Shown piece after piece: positions 2,794 through 13,577 of a stretch of 64,000 nt of DNA; within the stretch, counting starts at the first letter, position 1, and each line of letters starts with the position of its first letter. A program made the translations under genes and the position numbers. The notes below the pieces were generated by a model. The model was not told where the DNA came from. It saw nothing but the letters and a program-made list of their open reading frames with translations, and did no database searches. The stretch is from a virus. The stretch is from positions 1-64,000 of the IMG/VR virus record IMGVR_UViG_3300026292_000602. One strand, 5' to 3'.

Positions 2794-3832
2794 TGAACTG
2801 ATTGAATACTTGGTTAACCTGTTGTGTACATCTTACAAACGTTGTACACTTAGGCATATCTTTTAAACGTCTTGCACCAATGTAAGTACAAGCACTTCTA
2901 ACACCTCCAAGTATTTCAGTAATAGTTGCGTCGACAGGTCCTTTGTGTGGAATCTTAACTACTTTACCTTCAGCACCTCTGTATCCATCTTTTCTACGAC
3001 CATGTCTTTGCATAGCTTCATCTGAACTCATACCATAGAACGTAACTTTGCCATCTATAATTTCGCCTTCTGATTCGTCGTGTCCTGCTAACATACCACC
3101 TAGCATAACAAAGTGTGTACCTGCTCCAAAGGCTTTTGCAACATCACCTGGATATACACAACCACCATCAGCAATAATGTGTCCACCTATACCATTTGCG
3201 GCATCAACACATTCTATTACGCCTGACAGTTGTGGAACTCCTACACCAGTTTGTAATCTAGTTGTACATACTGAACCTGGTCCAATACCAACTTTAACAA
3301 TGTCTGCTCCACGTATAATAAGTTCTTCTGTCATCTCTGCGGTAACAACGTTACCAGCAATAATAGTTTTGTCTGGATAGTTATCTCTCATTCGAGCAAT
3401 AAAGTCTCCGAAGTTTTCATGATAAGCATTTGCAACATCAACAGTAATAAATTTAATATCTGGAAATGCTTCTAATACTCTTACCATAGTGTTATAATCT
3501 TTAGCATCTTTATCCCAGATATAACCTGTACCTGTGCATACACTAAGGTACTTCATTTTAATTCCTTGCGACTTTTGTTCCCAGTCTTCAAATGAATTGT
3601 GCTTACCTATTACAGTTAGCATCTTATGATCTTGTAATACTTTAGCCATACTAAATGTACCAACTCCGTCCATATTACTTGACATAATAGGAACACCAGT
3701 CCAGTGATTGCCACTATTGTGGAATTGGAAAGTTCTAATAAGATCAACATCTCTTCGACTTTCTAATTTAGATCTCTTCGGCTTGAATAAGACGTCTTTG
3801 TAGTCTAGTTTAATGTCATCTTCAATTCTCAT
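2783..3832 (-). CDS. guaC: GMP reductase
   Basis: [15 protein letters not shown] start, [24 protein letters not shown]. Confidence 0.95.
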
Positions 3833-4431
3833 TATTTCGCTCCATAGTTAAATGATATTGCTATACGTTCTGCATCCGACCTATTTTGTTTTACGGCGTG
3901 TTTTACCCAAGCTGGGAAAATAACAAGCATACCTGGCTTAGGCGGATACGTAGCCATAGTACTTGTAATAGTATTGTATGAACTTAAATTATCTGGAATA
4001 TAATATTGTGCATCGTCATCTCTATAAAATTGTAAGTCGCCCATATTCTCTGTTGGAACGTCTATATAAAATACTCCACTTAATAAAGCATCTTGATGAT
4101 TATGTAAAGTATGATATGCTCCTGGTGGATTAATATTAATCCAGAAGTTTTGTAACTTCAGCGGAGGAAACCCTACATTGTTTCTAACAGTATCAATAGC
4201 TTTATCAAATTCGATAACCATTTGATTGAAGATAGGTTGTATCTCTGGCGGTAGTAAATCTATATTTTCAATACTACGACTATGCCAACCACCTTCATTA
4301 CTGTTACCAGCAAGTTCAGGTTCTTTATTTTTCCAAGCCTGTGCAATTTGTTTTATAGCACCACGATTAATGTCTTCGTTAATACCTGCAAATACAATGC
4401 TAGGAAACCATAAATCCGCTTTCAGTTCCAT
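3832..4431 (-). CDS. TIGR02466-like 2OG-Fe(II) oxygenase
   Basis: WININ...HNH...LSGVFY...IFPAW.KH...RIAISFN. Confidence 0.85.
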
Positions 4432-5131: not shown

Positions 5132-6925
5132 CTATGACTGTTGTGAAGTCGGGTCTGAGTCTTCCGGATTTGTCTGAGCCCGGATTTGCTTGTTGCTTAC
5201 CTTTGTTATGTAATTGGTTCCCTTCACCGTTTTTTTTTGAGCTTCGTCTATTTGTTTAACTTCTTCGCCATAAAAGATTCTGTTGACTGTGTCAGGAAAC
5301 TCTTTATCTTTTGCTTTTTCTTTATCTTCTTTAGCAACTTCTTCTTCAGCCGCCTCTACCCATTTATTCCATTTTTCAATATCTTGTGCTTCTTCAATAA
5401 CATTATCTTCTTTTTCTAAAGCCTCTTGCATTTCTTCATCATCTGGAATTGAAGGTAAAACTTCTGCTACTTTAGGCTCTGGACGAGGTTCTAGCTCTTC
5501 TTCCATCTGTTCGCTTACAGTTTTTTCTTCTTCTTTAGCTTCTTCTTCTATTTCTTCAGCAACTTTTTCTAGGTCTTCTTCTAGTTCTTGCTTTGTTTCT
5601 TCTTCAACTTCTTCTATACGTTTTTCTACTTCACGTTCTACTTCTTCAGTATCTTCTTTTTCTTGTATAGCTTGATTATCAATCTTTTCCTGAATTACAG
5701 GGTGGGTATATGGTGTGTTATATGATTGTTGAATGTCTTCACCTTCCCAAGTATCTTTACCGCTTGGGGGGTCGTTAGGATTTTCTGGATCTGGATCGGA
5801 CTTTGGGGGCAACTTCGGGCCCTTGTCCTCTCTAACGTATTGGAATGTATATTGTGAAGCAATTAAAAGTAATACTGCTAATGGATCAAATACAAATATA
5901 ATTATTATAATAACCCAACGTACTGCTGACTCTAGTAAGTCTTGGTTTGCTTGTTCACCATATATAAACTCTGCAATATACTTAATAGGACCTACTTCAG
6001 CTTCAAGTTTTCTGTAAGTCTTTTCGTAAGCAAACTTCTCTTCTCTAACACCATCAATAATAGTTTGTTCTTTATCAATGAATGTTTCTAATTCTGTTAC
6101 ACGAGCATCTAAGTCTTCTGTTTTAGCATTAGCTTGACCACGTAAATCTTGTATTCTCTCTTGTATTGCTTTAATATCATCTGCATACTTGGCATCAACT
6201 TTAGCAAGTGCTTCATTTAAGGCCGCATTAATTTTCTTTATTTCTTTTTGGGCATTACTTGCCACACTTAATTCATTAGCTTTAGCTTGTGCTACTGCTT
6301 CATCAAACTTCGCACCGCCACCAAATGAACCTTCAAATCTATCTTTGGCCGCTTGTATATCTGCGTCTTTACGTTCTTTAGCTTGTATTAGTCTTTGGTT
6401 CTGTAATTCTATTTGTTTATCAAAGTCTATTCTTACATCATCTTTTTCAGATTTAATTAATATATTAATTTTGTCTAATTCTTTTTGTTCACGATCAATT
6501 AAGTTATCAACACGAATATCTTCACCACCTAATAGACGTTCCATTTCTAATGTCCAACGTTCTATTTTACCTTCGGATCGTGCCATCTTATCTTCGATGG
6601 TTTCAATAAGAGCGACTTGCTCTTGACTCATTGATGTTTGTTCTATGTGGGCTTTAGATAAAAAGCCAAAGATACCCATACTTGTAATAAACATTAATAC
6701 AAATACTGCTAGGGCAAGATAAGTTCTTAACCACCAGGTTGCTCGTTGCCAATGTCTATGGAGCCATACTGCCGTGACTAGTTTACCGACTTCTAATGAT
6801 ACACCCATTATTATAATAGGTATAACAGCCGCCGCGAAAATTGCCGCCAATCCAGCGACCGAATAGTATATAGCTACCGCACTAATCGTTAATGCAGATA
6901 GAAATGTTAGTATTCCTAGTAACAT
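5132..6925 (-). CDS. Membrane-anchored coiled-coil protein with acidic tail; likely -1 frameshift extension to 5058
   Basis: N-terminal TM helices, long heptad region, further TM segment, E-rich tail; A9 run at 5230-5238. Confidence 0.8.
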   Translation of the reverse strand: MLLGILTFLSALTISAVAIYYSVAGLAAIFAAAVIPIIIMGVSLEVGKLVTAVWLHRHWQRATWWLRTYLALAVFVLMFITSMGIFGFLSKAHIEQTSMSQEQVALIETIEDKMARSEGKIERWTLEMERLLGGEDIRVDNLIDREQKELDKINILIKSEKDDVRIDFDKQIELQNQRLIQAKERKDADIQAAKDRFEGSFGGGAKFDEAVAQAKANELSVASNAQKEIKKINAALNEALAKVDAKYADDIKAIQERIQDLRGQANAKTEDLDARVTELETFIDKEQTIIDGVREEKFAYEKTYRKLEAEVGPIKYIAEFIYGEQANQDLLESAVRWVIIIIIFVFDPLAVLLLIASQYTFQYVREDKGPKLPPKSDPDPENPNDPPSGKDTWEGEDIQQSYNTPYTHPVIQEKIDNQAIQEKEDTEEVEREVEKRIEEVEEETKQELEEDLEKVAEEIEEEAKEEEKTVSEQMEEELEPRPEPKVAEVLPSIPDDEEMQEALEKEDNVIEEAQDIEKWNKWVEAAEEEVAKEDKEKAKDKEFPDTVNRIFYGEEVKQIDEAQKKTVKGTNYITKVSNKQIRAQTNPEDSDPTSQQS

Positions 6926-10178: not shown

Positions 10179-10325
10179 TTACCTTCCTTGACCTCTATAG
10201 AACTTAAGGCTTCTTTTTTTACTCTTATTCATAGACGCTAATTTACAAGATCTTTTGCGTCCAGCTTGGGAAGTTTTTTTAGGTTGACTTACGTGTTCAG
10301 TATATCCACTGTGCATCCTTGCCAT
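10179..10325 (-). CDS. Small basic protein ending YRGQGR (48 aa)
   Basis: Manual translation MARMHSG...KKRSLKFYRGQGR; AAGGA SD. Confidence 0.7.
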   Translation of the reverse strand: MARMHSGYTEHVSQPKKTSQAGRKRSCKLASMNKSKKRSLKFYRGQGR

Positions 10326-10393: not shown

Positions 10394-10496
10394 TGGCTCT
10401 GGGGGTAGGACTCGAACCTACACGGTTAAATATATTGCAGTACATTTAGCCATACGAGAAACAATCGTACGTGTCTACCAATTCCACCACCCCAGA
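10394..10496 (-). tRNA. Atypical tRNA with GUU (Asn) anticodon, class II body and very long variable arm (103 nt)
   Basis: Acceptor UCUGGGG/CCCCAGA, G73, CCA; Leu/Ser-like D arm; anticodon stem UACGA/UCGUA with loop UUGUUUC; ~30-nt variable arm; T arm GUAGG-UUCGAGU-CCUAC. Confidence 0.85.
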
Positions 10497-10499
10497 TCG

Positions 10500-10658
10500 T
10501 TATTTTACGTTTACTATCCTCTTTAATAGTTCAACGTACTTTTTAATATCTTTACGTTTCCTTTTCTTAACAACTTTTGGGTTTTCTTTCTTTTCAGGCA
10601 ATATAGCACCTGTTGTAATATAGTGTAATGTTAAAGGATTGTTAGGATCGTAAGCCAT
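10500..10658 (-). CDS. Small basic hypothetical protein (52 aa)
   Basis: MAYDPNNPLTLHYITTG...KKRKRK; ATG overlaps the upstream stop. Confidence 0.6.
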   Translation of the reverse strand: MAYDPNNPLTLHYITTGAILPEKKENPKVVKKRKRKDIKKYVELLKRIVNVK

Positions 10659-11533
10659 TAACAAGCCGCCACTGGATCGTGTGTTAACGATGCCATTTGC
10701 TCTACTCTTGTCTCTGGGTTCTCTAGTCTATCTAATGCACTTATCATACGTGTCATTCCTATACCACCACCTACTCTTGGAAAGAAGTCGTGTTTTAAGA
10801 ACGTTTCTAGTTCTTCTTCTACTCTTTCTTTACCAAACTTGTCAAACAGTAAGTTACTGTAAGCACCTTCAGTAATTGTATGGAAAGTATCTCGCATTTG
10901 CTCTACATCAGTTGAACGTTCTGCACTACCTATTGTTTCCATTCCACCTAGTATTACATCTATCTTTTTACTTGTACCATCAGTATTTCTACTCATGTTC
11001 CAGAAAGGACTTGTAAACTCTGGGAAGTCTGTAATCATAGTTGTATAATAGTTTTCAAACATTTTAGTTTCATGCTCTGCCGTTAGCTCTCCTTCAATGC
11101 CGTATTCTTCTTGCCATTCGGCATAAGTTTTTTCTGTGGGCATCTTAAAGCCTAAGTGTTGACATAGTTCGTATTCCATCTTTTTAAGATCATCTATGTC
11201 ACCTGGCATTTCAAATTCAAACATTGGAAATATTATATCATGTCTACCTGGTATTGCATTAGGTTCTTGTCTGTAGGAAGTGGAGACACAAAAAAACCCC
11301 TTCGAAGAGGGGCGTGTAAGTAATTCGTATTCTAGCCACATCTGGCCCGTTTGCGGTAACGGCCAAACTTGTCCTGCATAATTGTATGTTGCTACATTAA
11401 AAGGATCTTCACACGCCGCCAGTATGCTTAATCTGTTTTGTGTGTGTACTTCTTCAAATCCTTTATTCAAAAAAAATGACCTTAAAAGGCCAACTGTCTT
11501 CGTAAATTTACTCGGGTTTATTAATTGCGTCAT
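10658..11533 (-). CDS. Class IIb aminoacyl-tRNA synthetase catalytic core (AsnRS / archaeal-type AsnA-like), no anticodon-binding domain
   Basis: Motif 1 FF..KGFEEVHT, motif 2 YRQEP..GRH..F, motif 3 GGGIGMTRM; begins directly at motif 1. Confidence 0.85.
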   Translation of the reverse strand: MTQLINPSKFTKTVGLLRSFFLNKGFEEVHTQNRLSILAACEDPFNVATYNYAGQVWPLPQTGQMWLEYELLTRPSSKGFFCVSTSYRQEPNAIPGRHDIIFPMFEFEMPGDIDDLKKMEYELCQHLGFKMPTEKTYAEWQEEYGIEGELTAEHETKMFENYYTTMITDFPEFTSPFWNMSRNTDGTSKKIDVILGGMETIGSAERSTDVEQMRDTFHTITEGAYSNLLFDKFGKERVEEELETFLKHDFFPRVGGGIGMTRMISALDRLENPETRVEQMASLTHDPVAAC

Positions 11534-11636
11534 TTCTTTTTTCCTTTTTGAGTTATACGTCAAAAAAAATTTAAGTCAAAAAAAAACTTGACTGTGTTTC
11601 TTCTGTCTAGGTATTTATCATCTAGGCGAAAAAACG

Positions 11637-11713
11637 TGGCGGGAGTGAAGGGACTCGAACCCTCGGCCTTCCGCGTGACAGGCGGACGCTCTAACCAACT
11701 GAGCTACACCCCC
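11637..11713 (-). tRNA. tRNA-Asp(GTC)
   Basis: Canonical cloverleaf, CCA encoded. Confidence 0.95.
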
Positions 11714-11723
11714 ACTATTTTAG

Positions 11724-11798
11724 TGGTAGTCCCTAGGAGAATCGAACTCCTCTTTGCGGTATGAAAAACCGCTGTCCTAACCGATAGACGAAGGGACC
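11724..11798 (-). tRNA. tRNA-Glu(TTC)
   Basis: Cloverleaf with anticodon arm GCGGU-UUUUCAU-ACCGC, CCA encoded. Confidence 0.93.
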
Positions 11799-11806
11799 AC
11801 TTTAAG

Positions 11807-11882
11807 TGGTGGAGCACGAGGGAATCGAACCCACGACCTCCTGAATGCAAATCAGGCGCTCTCCCAACTGAGCTAGTGCCCC
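11807..11882 (-). tRNA. tRNA-Ala(TGC)
   Basis: Cloverleaf with G3-U70, CCA encoded. Confidence 0.95.
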
Positions 11883-13204: not shown

Positions 13205-13505
13205 TAGACGCAACGTTTCTGTTGCTAGGTACGTTGCCAACCCCGAGTGATTATGCCGCTAGGGCAAAATCCTCATTTACCGCAGTTACTGGCGCAGAAA
13301 AATCTACGAAAGTAACGTTGGTTAGTGCATTATCGTTTGCATCTATAACGTTTGTTCGCGTTAACGGAGCTTACATCCCGGTAATCTCGTTCAACCTTAA
13401 CAAGCCAGTCGATCCTATTTCTACCCCGTAGGGGGTGTATTGAAATGGTGGAGTAGCCGGGTATCGCACCCGGGTCCTGCTCTTGTGACATACGTTGCTG
13501 TCATC
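13205..13505 (-). ncRNA. ssrA: tmRNA, circularly permuted two-piece type
   Basis: Acceptor piece ...CCCGGGUGCGAUACCCGGCUACUCCACCA (3' end 13446) lies upstream of the coding piece GGGGUAGAAAUAGGAUCGAC (5' end 13427); tag ANDNALTNVTFVDFSAPVTAVNEDFALAA at 13340-13251. Outer boundaries approximate. Confidence 0.93.
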
Positions 13506-13577
13506 AATTACAGTAATATTTAGCCTTAATATGCTACTATTATAGGAAAAGAGATAACTAATGTCAAAGGAAAAACA

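Follow-up and report, generated by a model that had tools for sequence, protein, structure and literature searches.

A tRNA gene and a synthetase-like gene at one locus

We analyzed a stretch of 64,000 nucleotides (referred to here as the window), positions 1 to 64,000 of the IMG/VR virus record IMGVR_UViG_3300026292_000602, whose source is an 82-kb viral contig with a CheckV completeness estimate of 23%. On the minus strand, the window carries a gene for an asparaginyl-tRNA synthetase (AsnRS)-derived class IIb catalytic core without anticodon-binding domain (10658-11533, 291 aa from the ATG at 11533), followed by a gene for a tRNA(GUU), named here the private tRNA (10394-10496). A total of 161 nt separate the enzyme stop from the tRNA, which agrees with the distance of about 160 nt given in an earlier reading made from the letters of the DNA (the sequence-only reading). 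At most homologous loci, the tRNA starts only 5-11 nt past the enzyme stop. The spacer in the window contains a Lys-rich open reading frame (ORF) of 54 aa (10500-10664, minus strand) without a match to any PHROG or PADLOC family, and the C-terminal part of this ORF recurs after the enzyme gene in locus L010. The 161-nt spacer with its ORF is a lineage-specific insertion. The enzyme ORF extends over 10658-11563 (minus strand), and an alternative TTG start at 11563 would give a protein of 301 aa. Gene callers in public data begin the enzyme at M11, and 11533 is the probable start.

Structure and variation of the private tRNA

The private tRNA consists of 100 nt plus an encoded CCA, with U1-A72, G73, a canonical T arm and canonical tertiary positions. 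The Rfam tRNA model (RF00005) matches 10397-10496 (minus strand) with 47 bits and an E-value of 4e-8, above the gathering threshold of 29, and together with the sequence this confirms the 103-nt tRNA(GUU) with U1-A72, G73 and a long variable arm that the sequence-only reading had described. ARAGORN missed this gene. The D arm is of the Leu type, with a 3-bp stem and an 11-nt loop. The anticodon GUU (10460-10462, minus strand) lies in the loop UUGUUUC, with U33 and U37. The variable arm of 28 nt (10424-10451, minus strand) forms a stem of 10-11 bp closed by a CUGCAA loop (GGCUAAAUGUA/CUGCAA/UAUAUUUAACC).

An alignment of 59 distinct homologs displays compensatory changes in 19 of the 24 cloverleaf pairs, while U1-A72, G73, U8, G9 and G34U35U36 are invariant; U1-A72, G73 and GUU are also kept in more distant loci. 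Two positions of the anticodon loop are free to vary. In the 59 sequences, position 37 carries U 44 times, A 11 times and C four times, with G37 also found in more distant loci; at position 33, U occurs in 55 sequences, C in three and G in one, with A33 and G33 in more distant loci. The variable region measures 12-37 nt in this set and 7-37 nt family-wide, and its sequences differ between lineages. The shortest region, 7 nt, belongs to tRNA forms of 79 nt, which ARAGORN calls tRNA-Asn. In the long-arm forms (n = 25), 96% of cells are paired, and the observed values were reached by none of 500 shuffles; the basal 3 bp of the arm covary, and its distal helix of six pairs, in which the 3' strand UAUAUUUA is conserved, shows 82% pairing. 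A general role of the long arm as a specific recognition element was rejected, given the 79-nt forms with a variable loop of 7 nt and the lineage-specific arm sequences. The sequence-only reading had proposed that the long arm replaces anticodon reading, and this is not supported: besides the variation in length and sequence, homologs of about 60% identity with the same active-site segments exist without such a tRNA.

Among cellular sequences, a covariance model of the family (R1) matches tRNA-Leu best, with 60-72 bits. The family possesses the Leu-type D arm and the class II body of tRNA-Leu and lacks A73 and a Leu anticodon, G73 and GUU being invariant. The bacterial tRNA-Asn marks GUU, G73 and U1-A72 are all present, and the last of these is a GatCAB determinant (PMC2330236). 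The class I architecture of tRNA-Asn, with a short variable loop, a 4-bp D stem, U33 and A37, is not shared, as the D stem has 3 bp, the variable region spans 7-37 nt, position 37 is mostly U (44 of 59 sequences) and position 33 can be C, G or A. The private tRNA is, in sum, a tRNA-Leu-like body with the identity set of tRNA-Asn, in which the positions mattering mostly for ribosomal decoding are relaxed.

Forms of 97-110 nt are either missed by ARAGORN or mis-called as tRNA-Asp(atc), Glu(ctc), Ile(aat), Asn(att) or as tRNAs with a 4-base anticodon. Such forms follow the enzyme gene in loci L015, L019, L020, L028-L030, L032, L033, L036, L043, L052, L065, L071 and L082-L085, and routine annotation will therefore mislabel many of these genes.

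The enzyme is an AsnRS-like core without anticodon-binding domain

The Pfam class II D/K/N catalytic domain tRNA-synt_2 (PF00152) matches the enzyme with an E-value of 2e-16 over profile positions 24-296 of 308. The match spans the catalytic domain only, and therefore nothing lies N-terminal to this domain in the enzyme. The description in the sequence-only reading, a class IIb core with motifs 1-3 and without an N-terminal oligonucleotide-binding (OB) fold, is borne out. The AF2 model of the enzyme has a pLDDT of 92.8. The enzyme belongs to PHROG 29758, a family of unknown function (E 1e-127). It comes near the cut-off of no NCBIfam model; the best is asnS TIGR00457, with 30.3 bits against a cut-off of 342.6, and the scores of asparagine synthetase A (NF005055, 17.9 bits, cut-off 389) and EpmA (NF006828, 16.6 bits, cut-off 264) are far lower than required. 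A search of the ESM Atlas returned only viral clusters named 'tRNA ligase'.

The top Foldseek matches of the AF2 model are the AsnRS structures 2xgt, 1x54 and 8tc8, with 18-19% identity. A family profile built from 41 diverse members was searched against the PDB sequences, and matched AsnRS 2xgt best (E 9e-15), followed by human AsnRS (about 5e-13), archaeal aspartyl-tRNA synthetase (AspRS) 3nel (5e-13), AsnRS 1x54 (1e-10), EpmA (about 1e-6), lysyl-tRNA synthetase (LysRS; about 1e-5), AS-AR 3p8t (2e-5) and E. coli AspRS (1e-3). Both searches place the protein closest to AsnRS, as the sequence-only reading had suggested. In the phylogenetic tree, the enzyme family is monophyletic and forms a long branch apart from AsnRS, AspRS and LysRS.

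The anticodon domain was not found elsewhere in the phage genomes that were searched. No match to the OB-fold family PF01336 was obtained in P-SSM2, P-SSM7, two large paired contigs or the contig of the window, and no fusion to an anticodon domain was seen among homologs longer than the query. A split AsnRS, which would need a separately encoded OB-fold domain, was rejected on this basis.

The catalytic motifs are located, all on the minus strand, by translation and family alignment. The motif 1 region, GFEEVHTQNRLSIL, lies at 11420-11461, and next to it the AACED segment (11405-11419), counterpart of the 'ACEG' flipping loop of AsnRS, is about 100% conserved in the paired and the solo groups, that is, in members with and without the private tRNA. 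The amino-acid-pocket segment QTGQMWLE (11330-11353) is conserved to 100% in the paired group and to 95-100% in the solo groups. Motif 2 including its loop, FFCVSTSYRQEPNAIPGRHDIIFPMFEFE, occupies 11210-11296, and its R98, G106-R107-H108 and FEFE strand are family-invariant. The ETIGSAERS segment (10913-10939) has the Asx-type Arg where LysRS has Glu, and motif 3, FFPRVGGGIGMTRMISAL, is found at 10733-10786.

We further compared the pocket with AsnRS, AspRS and LysRS sequences taken from genomes. AACED of the family corresponds to NACEG in AsnRS (L175), TPEGA in AspRS and TGGA in LysRS. QTGQMWLE corresponds to QSGQLYIE or QssQlyLE in AsnRS, QSPQ..K in AspRS and ..E..LK in LysRS, and ETIGSAERS to EIIGGSQRE in AsnRS and E.GGGS.R in AspRS, with Glu replacing Arg in LysRS. 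All three pocket segments thus match the AsnRS pattern. The pocket segments and motifs 2 and 3 are near 100% conserved across every subgroup, and therefore a chemistry shared by the whole enzyme family is likely.

The enzyme and the tRNA co-occur in both directions

More than 590 IMG/VR contigs encode a relative of the protein. The tRNA is present in 78 of the 85 closest loci, and 123 of 245 loci from viruses and metagenome-assembled genomes (MAGs) are paired. In the reverse direction, a pattern made from the T arm and acceptor of the tRNA alone was searched against IMG/VR and found 80 loci; the enzyme lies directly upstream in all 76 that could be assessed, namely those with enough upstream sequence. 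The tRNA type was never seen without the enzyme in this sample. The paired state falls in two clades of the enzyme tree, and at least seven changes are needed to explain its distribution.

Besides hundreds of marine viral contigs, cultured phages carry the cassette. The Prochlorococcus phages P-SSM7, P-SSM2 and P-SSM5 encode a 'tRNA ligase' of 65-66% identity followed within about 10 nt by a tRNA-Asn(GUU) of 85-88 nt. The private tRNA is the only tRNA-Asn of P-SSM2 and P-SSM7, and the sole tRNA of any kind in P-SSM2. We consider a direct functional partnership of the enzyme and the tRNA rather likely. The dedicated pair put forward in the sequence-only reading is supported by the co-occurrence in both directions.

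In the GenBank record of P-SSM2 (L002, AY939844.2), the tRNA-Asn feature PSSM2_199 is annotated at 5825-5910. The real gene lies about 2 kb away at 3814-3899, directly after the 'tRNA ligase', as in P-SSM5 and P-SSM7. According to the GenBank annotation, a lipase gene comes right after the cassette in P-SSM2 and P-SSM5 (L002 3935-4549, L003 3887-4501), and on a distant 344-kb viral contig a solo enzyme gene is followed by a Pfam class-3 lipase match (L196 3361-4146).

Distribution beyond the paired phages

The family is far larger than the set of paired phages. One protein search yielded at least 8000 clusters at 90% identity, and another gave 455 clusters at 50% identity with E < 1e-10; the distant homolog P0155 used as query found nothing in IMG/VR. 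Solo members are about 55-63% identical to the window protein. They occur in Patescibacteria of the candidate phyla radiation (CPR), including a complete Saccharibacteria chromosome, in Rickettsiales, including a complete Candidatus Bandiella chromosome, in Aureispira and Weeksellaceae (with Bacteroidota among the host groups), in giant-virus MAG contigs and in huge phages. The huge phages LR756501 and LR756508 possess the solo enzyme, with ordinary tRNA-Asn genes of 74-77 nt instead of the private tRNA. NCBI names for the family include 'amino acid--tRNA ligase-related protein', 'tRNA ligase' and even 'transposase'. No conserved protein partner was found upstream of the solo genes.

Canonical AsnRS was found in only one of five cellular genomes examined, and GatB in all five; G001, G002 and G004 are without AsnRS and have GatB. 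Among 101 Saccharimonadia genomes, five encode the enzyme family and none encodes asnS. AsnA is reported only in organisms using AsnRS (PMC2330236). The presence of the enzyme family in lineages without AsnRS is the opposite of this rule and argues against a plain asparagine-synthetase role.

Some neighbors of the enzyme gene recur. A gene of the fatty-acid-desaturase family adjoins the enzyme gene in two unrelated lineages, a Saccharibacteria chromosome (L118 3902-4765) and a marine phage (L012 900-1994). A tRNA-Gln lies 0.14-2.8 kb downstream of the solo gene at six related CPR MAG loci (L098, L109, L110, L115, L122 and L136), which may be plain synteny.

Linkage of the enzyme family to pyrimidine genes

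Gene neighborhoods were read from a few hundred loci. Among proteins that exceed the query in length, dihydroorotate (DHO) dehydrogenase alone recurs as a fusion partner, with at least nine clusters of 584-661 aa, one of which was seen on seven contigs. A single fusion of orotidine monophosphate (OMP) decarboxylase to the enzyme family was also found. In three Rickettsiales or alphaproteobacterial genomes, the enzyme gene is followed within 1-55 nt by pyrF, a small phosphoribosyltransferase (PRTase), a DHO dehydrogenase-like gene and prs; pyrF of the Rickettsiales operon scores above its cut-off. Aureispira and one giant-virus contig have a pyrD gene immediately upstream in the same orientation. 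Thymidine kinase and argH are among the neighbors of the enzyme family, and on one Patescibacteria contig argH (argininosuccinate lyase, over cut-off; L108 1648-2934) lies 49 nt upstream of a solo enzyme gene.

The linkage extends to some paired loci. A DHO dehydrogenase-like gene of 233 aa flanks the enzyme-tRNA cassette in L037, L066, L080/81, L089 and L096, and a phosphoribosyl pyrophosphate (PRPP) synthetase gene follows the tRNA in L012 and L014. A short and divergent DHO dehydrogenase-like subfamily of 233-260 aa travels with the enzyme in Rickettsiales and marine phages (L157 4830-5570, L114 4893-5675, L037 2121-2822, L096 4837-5538), and may not be a standard PyrD.

No match to pyrB or pyrC was obtained in the operon carriers G002 and G113 or in G001 and G004, and the operon carrier G112 has only sub-cutoff matches. 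AsnB over its cut-off was absent from G001, G002, G004, G112 and G113. The enzyme family itself shows no homology to PyrB or PyrC. The absence of pyrB and pyrC from host genomes is no more than circumstantial for a pyrimidine step.

Interpretation of the pair

The enzyme and its tRNA are probably not an ordinary translational pair. We favor, tentatively, the reading that the enzyme acts on Asn carried by or drawn from the private tRNA and thereby feeds pyrimidine synthesis. In this reading, the adenylating core derived from AsnRS retains its ATP site, an Asn-type pocket and the motif-2 loop facing the acceptor end of a tRNA, and no longer reads the anticodon. The family belongs to a context of pyrimidine supply, with DHO dehydrogenase, OMP decarboxylase, PRTase and PRPP synthetase. 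The private tRNA could be loaded by the enzyme itself or by a host non-discriminating AspRS together with GatCAB. From the tRNA-presented or tRNA-derived Asn, CO2 and ATP, the enzyme would then make dihydroorotate or a close precursor, and the result during infection would be a bypass of carbamoyl phosphate synthetase (CPSase), PyrB and PyrC.

The stoichiometry is simple, as Asn plus CO2 minus H2O equals dihydroorotate, and dethiobiotin synthetase is a precedent for ureido-ring closure with CO2 and ATP. GUU, G73 and U1-A72 are the exact identity set of a non-discriminating AspRS with GatCAB, and in hosts without AsnRS and AsnB, Asn is made solely on tRNA. What we observed is the linkage, the invariant positions, the fused genes and operons, and solo genomes that lack pyrB, pyrC, AsnRS and AsnB; the binding of Asn, the action at the 3' end of the tRNA and the chemistry of the enzyme we infer. 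A model in which the enzyme acts on Asn at the tRNA 3' end and supplies dihydroorotate covers most of the observations, and we hold it as possible, short of probable. We regard as unlikely a fuller version, in which the tRNA is a carrier and not a decoder: Asn would be built on it by the non-discriminating AspRS and GatCAB or by the enzyme, and closed with CO2 and ATP to dihydroorotate, giving a one-enzyme bypass of CPSase, aspartate transcarbamylase and dihydroorotase in phages and, via ordinary Asn-tRNA or free Asn, in CPR, Rickettsiales and giant viruses.

Several points weigh against the favored reading. We know of no enzyme that makes dihydroorotate from asparagine, and of no tRNA-dependent step in pyrimidine synthesis. 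Solo homologs of giant viruses and CPR occur without the private tRNA. A DHO dehydrogenase gene is absent from the contig of the window, from P-SSM2 and P-SSM7 and from most paired phages, and a pyrimidine gene lies within 3 kb in only about eight of about 123 paired loci. Ribosomal decoding would account just as well for the invariant GUU, and a class IIb AspRS of full length may accommodate the long-arm tRNA poorly. RNA libraries contain a fragment of the enzyme ORF (11098-11260) in two runs of one study and, in another study, a tRNA-sized contig of a relative (10402-10497, nine differences). These contigs denote presence in RNA libraries and do not prove transcription, and the evidence for expression of the module is weak.

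A close rival, which we find somewhat doubtful, is a translational orthogonal pair. Here a minimal AsnRS would read only the acceptor end (U1-A72, G73) and charge free Asn to a tRNA that decodes AAY, so that the supply of Asn-tRNA would be freed from the host AsnRS or AspRS/GatCAB, with the bulky Leu-type body repelling the host class IIb enzymes. All class II motifs and an AsnRS-type pocket are at hand for such a role, the linkage is tight and reciprocal, and the tRNA has an invariant GUU, canonical tertiary positions and an encoded CCA. It is also the only tRNA-Asn in P-SSM2 and P-SSM7, whereas the solo huge phages have ordinary tRNA-Asn, and the family is found in AsnRS-less lineages, opposite to the pattern of AsnA (PMC2330236). 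This rival leaves unexplained, however, why the family is recurrently fused to, or in operons with, genes for DHO dehydrogenase, OMP decarboxylase and PRPP synthetase, and the lack of constraint on positions 33 and 37 would be unusual in an elongator tRNA. Asn makes up just 5.2% of the codons in the window. To our knowledge, no characterized class IIb paralog without anticodon domain charges tRNA, which also counts against this rival. A supply of Asn-tRNA independent of GatCAB was one of two roles offered in the sequence-only reading; it is possible, and leaves the repeated pyrimidine fusions and linkage unexplained. The other, a non-ribosomal aminoacyl donor, is suggested to lie closer to the present evidence.

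A purely metabolic enzyme, which we take to be rather unlikely, would form dihydroorotate from a free Asx-type substrate, either carbamoyl-aspartate or Asn together with CO2, and leave the tRNA untouched; the tRNA(GUU) would be a separate, host-charged decoding tRNA, co-expressed for example to make up for depletion of the Asn pool. The fusion and operon links to pyrimidine genes, the genomes lacking pyrB and pyrC and the neighboring thymidine kinase and argH genes agree with it, as do active-site segments that are identical in solo and paired members, including those of giant viruses of eukaryotes. Such an enzyme does not explain why the tRNA type is never found without it (76/76), why fixation is confined to the identity marks of acceptor and anticodon, with positions 33 and 37 free to drift, or why P-SSM2 retains the private tRNA as its sole tRNA.

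We consider very unlikely an ammonia-dependent asparagine synthetase of the AsnA or archaeal AS-AR kind (Asp + NH3 + ATP to Asn), which with an extra tRNA-Asn would serve the Asn supply of an AT-rich phage. The known characterized Asx-type class II cores without anticodon domain are indeed such synthetases (PMC9437257), and there are weak profile matches to AS-AR 3p8t (2e-5) and NF005055. Yet the family is nearer to AsnRS and AspRS than to AS-AR, it occurs in AsnRS-less lineages where free Asn cannot enter translation, and AsnA is reported solely in AsnRS-using organisms (PMC2330236); such a role also gives no account of the pyrimidine linkage or of a tRNA found exclusively with the enzyme. 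Charging with Asp by a minimal non-discriminating AspRS, followed by conversion to Asn-tRNA by the host GatCAB via U1-A72, is highly improbable: U1-A72 is invariant and a GatCAB determinant (PMC2330236), and archaeal-type AspRS nearly equals AsnRS in family-profile score, but the pocket has the AsnRS pattern without the Lys of QSPQ..K in AspRS, and the large Leu-type D loop seems to resemble the reported D-loop antideterminant of GatCAB (PMC2330236).

Relation to known systems and significance

The family shares with AsnRS (2xgt, 1x54, 8tc8) the class II fold, motifs 1-3, ACE[GD], Q[ST][SG]Q..[LI]E and E.IG..R, and has its best profile and fold matches there. It differs by the lack of an OB-fold anticodon domain and hinge, by an identity of 18-19%, by its separate long branch and by its pyrimidine linkage. 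AsnA of E. coli and AS-AR (3p8t) are likewise stand-alone Asx-type class II cores without anticodon domain, but their profile match (2e-5) falls far behind that of AsnRS (9e-15), and this family occurs in AsnRS-less GatCAB genomes and, in phages, with a private tRNA. EpmA/PoxA/GenX, the LysRS paralog modifying EF-P (3a5y, 3g1z), resembles the family as a class IIb core, about 300 aa long, without anticodon domain, and acts on a non-canonical acceptor; its pocket is of the Lys type in contrast to the Asx-type Arg of this family, the match is weaker (1e-6), and no link to EF-P was seen.

HisZ of the HisZ-HisG system, a HisRS paralog working with a phosphoribosyltransferase, resembles the family as a synthetase-like core outside an aminoacylation context that is encoded in one operon together with enzymes using PRPP. 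In HisZ, which is regulatory, the catalytic residues are lost, whereas they are near-invariant in this family. tRNA-dependent synthesis, as in Asp-tRNAAsn/GatCAB or Glu-tRNA in haem formation, is similar in that a tRNA may carry a metabolic intermediate, with U1-A72 as the GatCAB mark; the phage tRNA is distinct in being private to the cassette and in its Leu-type body. Pairs that ignore the anticodon (PylRS/tRNAPyl, SerRS, AlaRS) and allo-tRNAs (PMC5389517) also combine an enzyme that does not read the anticodon with a tRNA architecture not standard for its anticodon. The phage tRNA differs from them by a normal 7/5 acceptor branch, an Asn identity set on a tRNA-Leu-like frame and an arm of unfixed length.

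A 2022 review of synthetase-like proteins lists only AS-A in the Asx branch (PMC9437257). In our literature searches, no paper was found on the pairing, on the Leu-type architecture of the tRNA, on a family apart from AsnRS and AsnA or on the pyrimidine link, and searches on truncated AsnRS paralogs and on a pyrimidine-linked synthetase-like enzyme gave nothing relevant. Both genes are already annotated in GenBank, merely as 'tRNA ligase' and 'tRNA-Asn'. The cassette is abundant and is carried by cultured cyanophages. If it is a true charging pair, it would be a natural minimal synthetase/tRNA system that ignores the anticodon, of interest for genetic-code engineering and for the evolution of tRNA identity. 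If the pyrimidine link reflects function, phages, giant viruses and reduced-genome symbionts without PyrB and PyrC would possess an unrecognized enzyme step supplying dihydroorotate, which would change the inference of nucleotide auxotrophy for CPR bacteria and Rickettsiales and the reading of viral auxiliary metabolism.

Gene neighborhood in the window

The window has a G+C content of 37%, and DNA nearly identical to it is present in marine metagenomes of many studies. Immediately upstream of the enzyme gene, in the same orientation, is a cluster of tRNA-Ala(UGC), tRNA-Glu(UUC) and tRNA-Asp(GUC) genes (11637-11882, minus strand), and no ordinary tRNA-Asn was found in the window. No PADLOC match denoting membership in a defence system was found for the module. 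Terminator-like hairpins at 11296-11313 and 11477-11492 both fall within the enzyme ORF and are probably chance matches.

About 70 nt downstream of the tRNA, in the same orientation, begins a very basic ORF of 48 aa (10179-10325, minus strand; MARMHSGYTEHVSQPKK...KFYRGQGR). The window further contains a two-piece (permuted) tmRNA gene of the alphaproteobacterial type (13206-13571, minus strand; Rfam alpha_tmRNA, 125 bits), for which ARAGORN reads the tag AVNEDFALAA, and which hints at an alphaproteobacterial host or donor.

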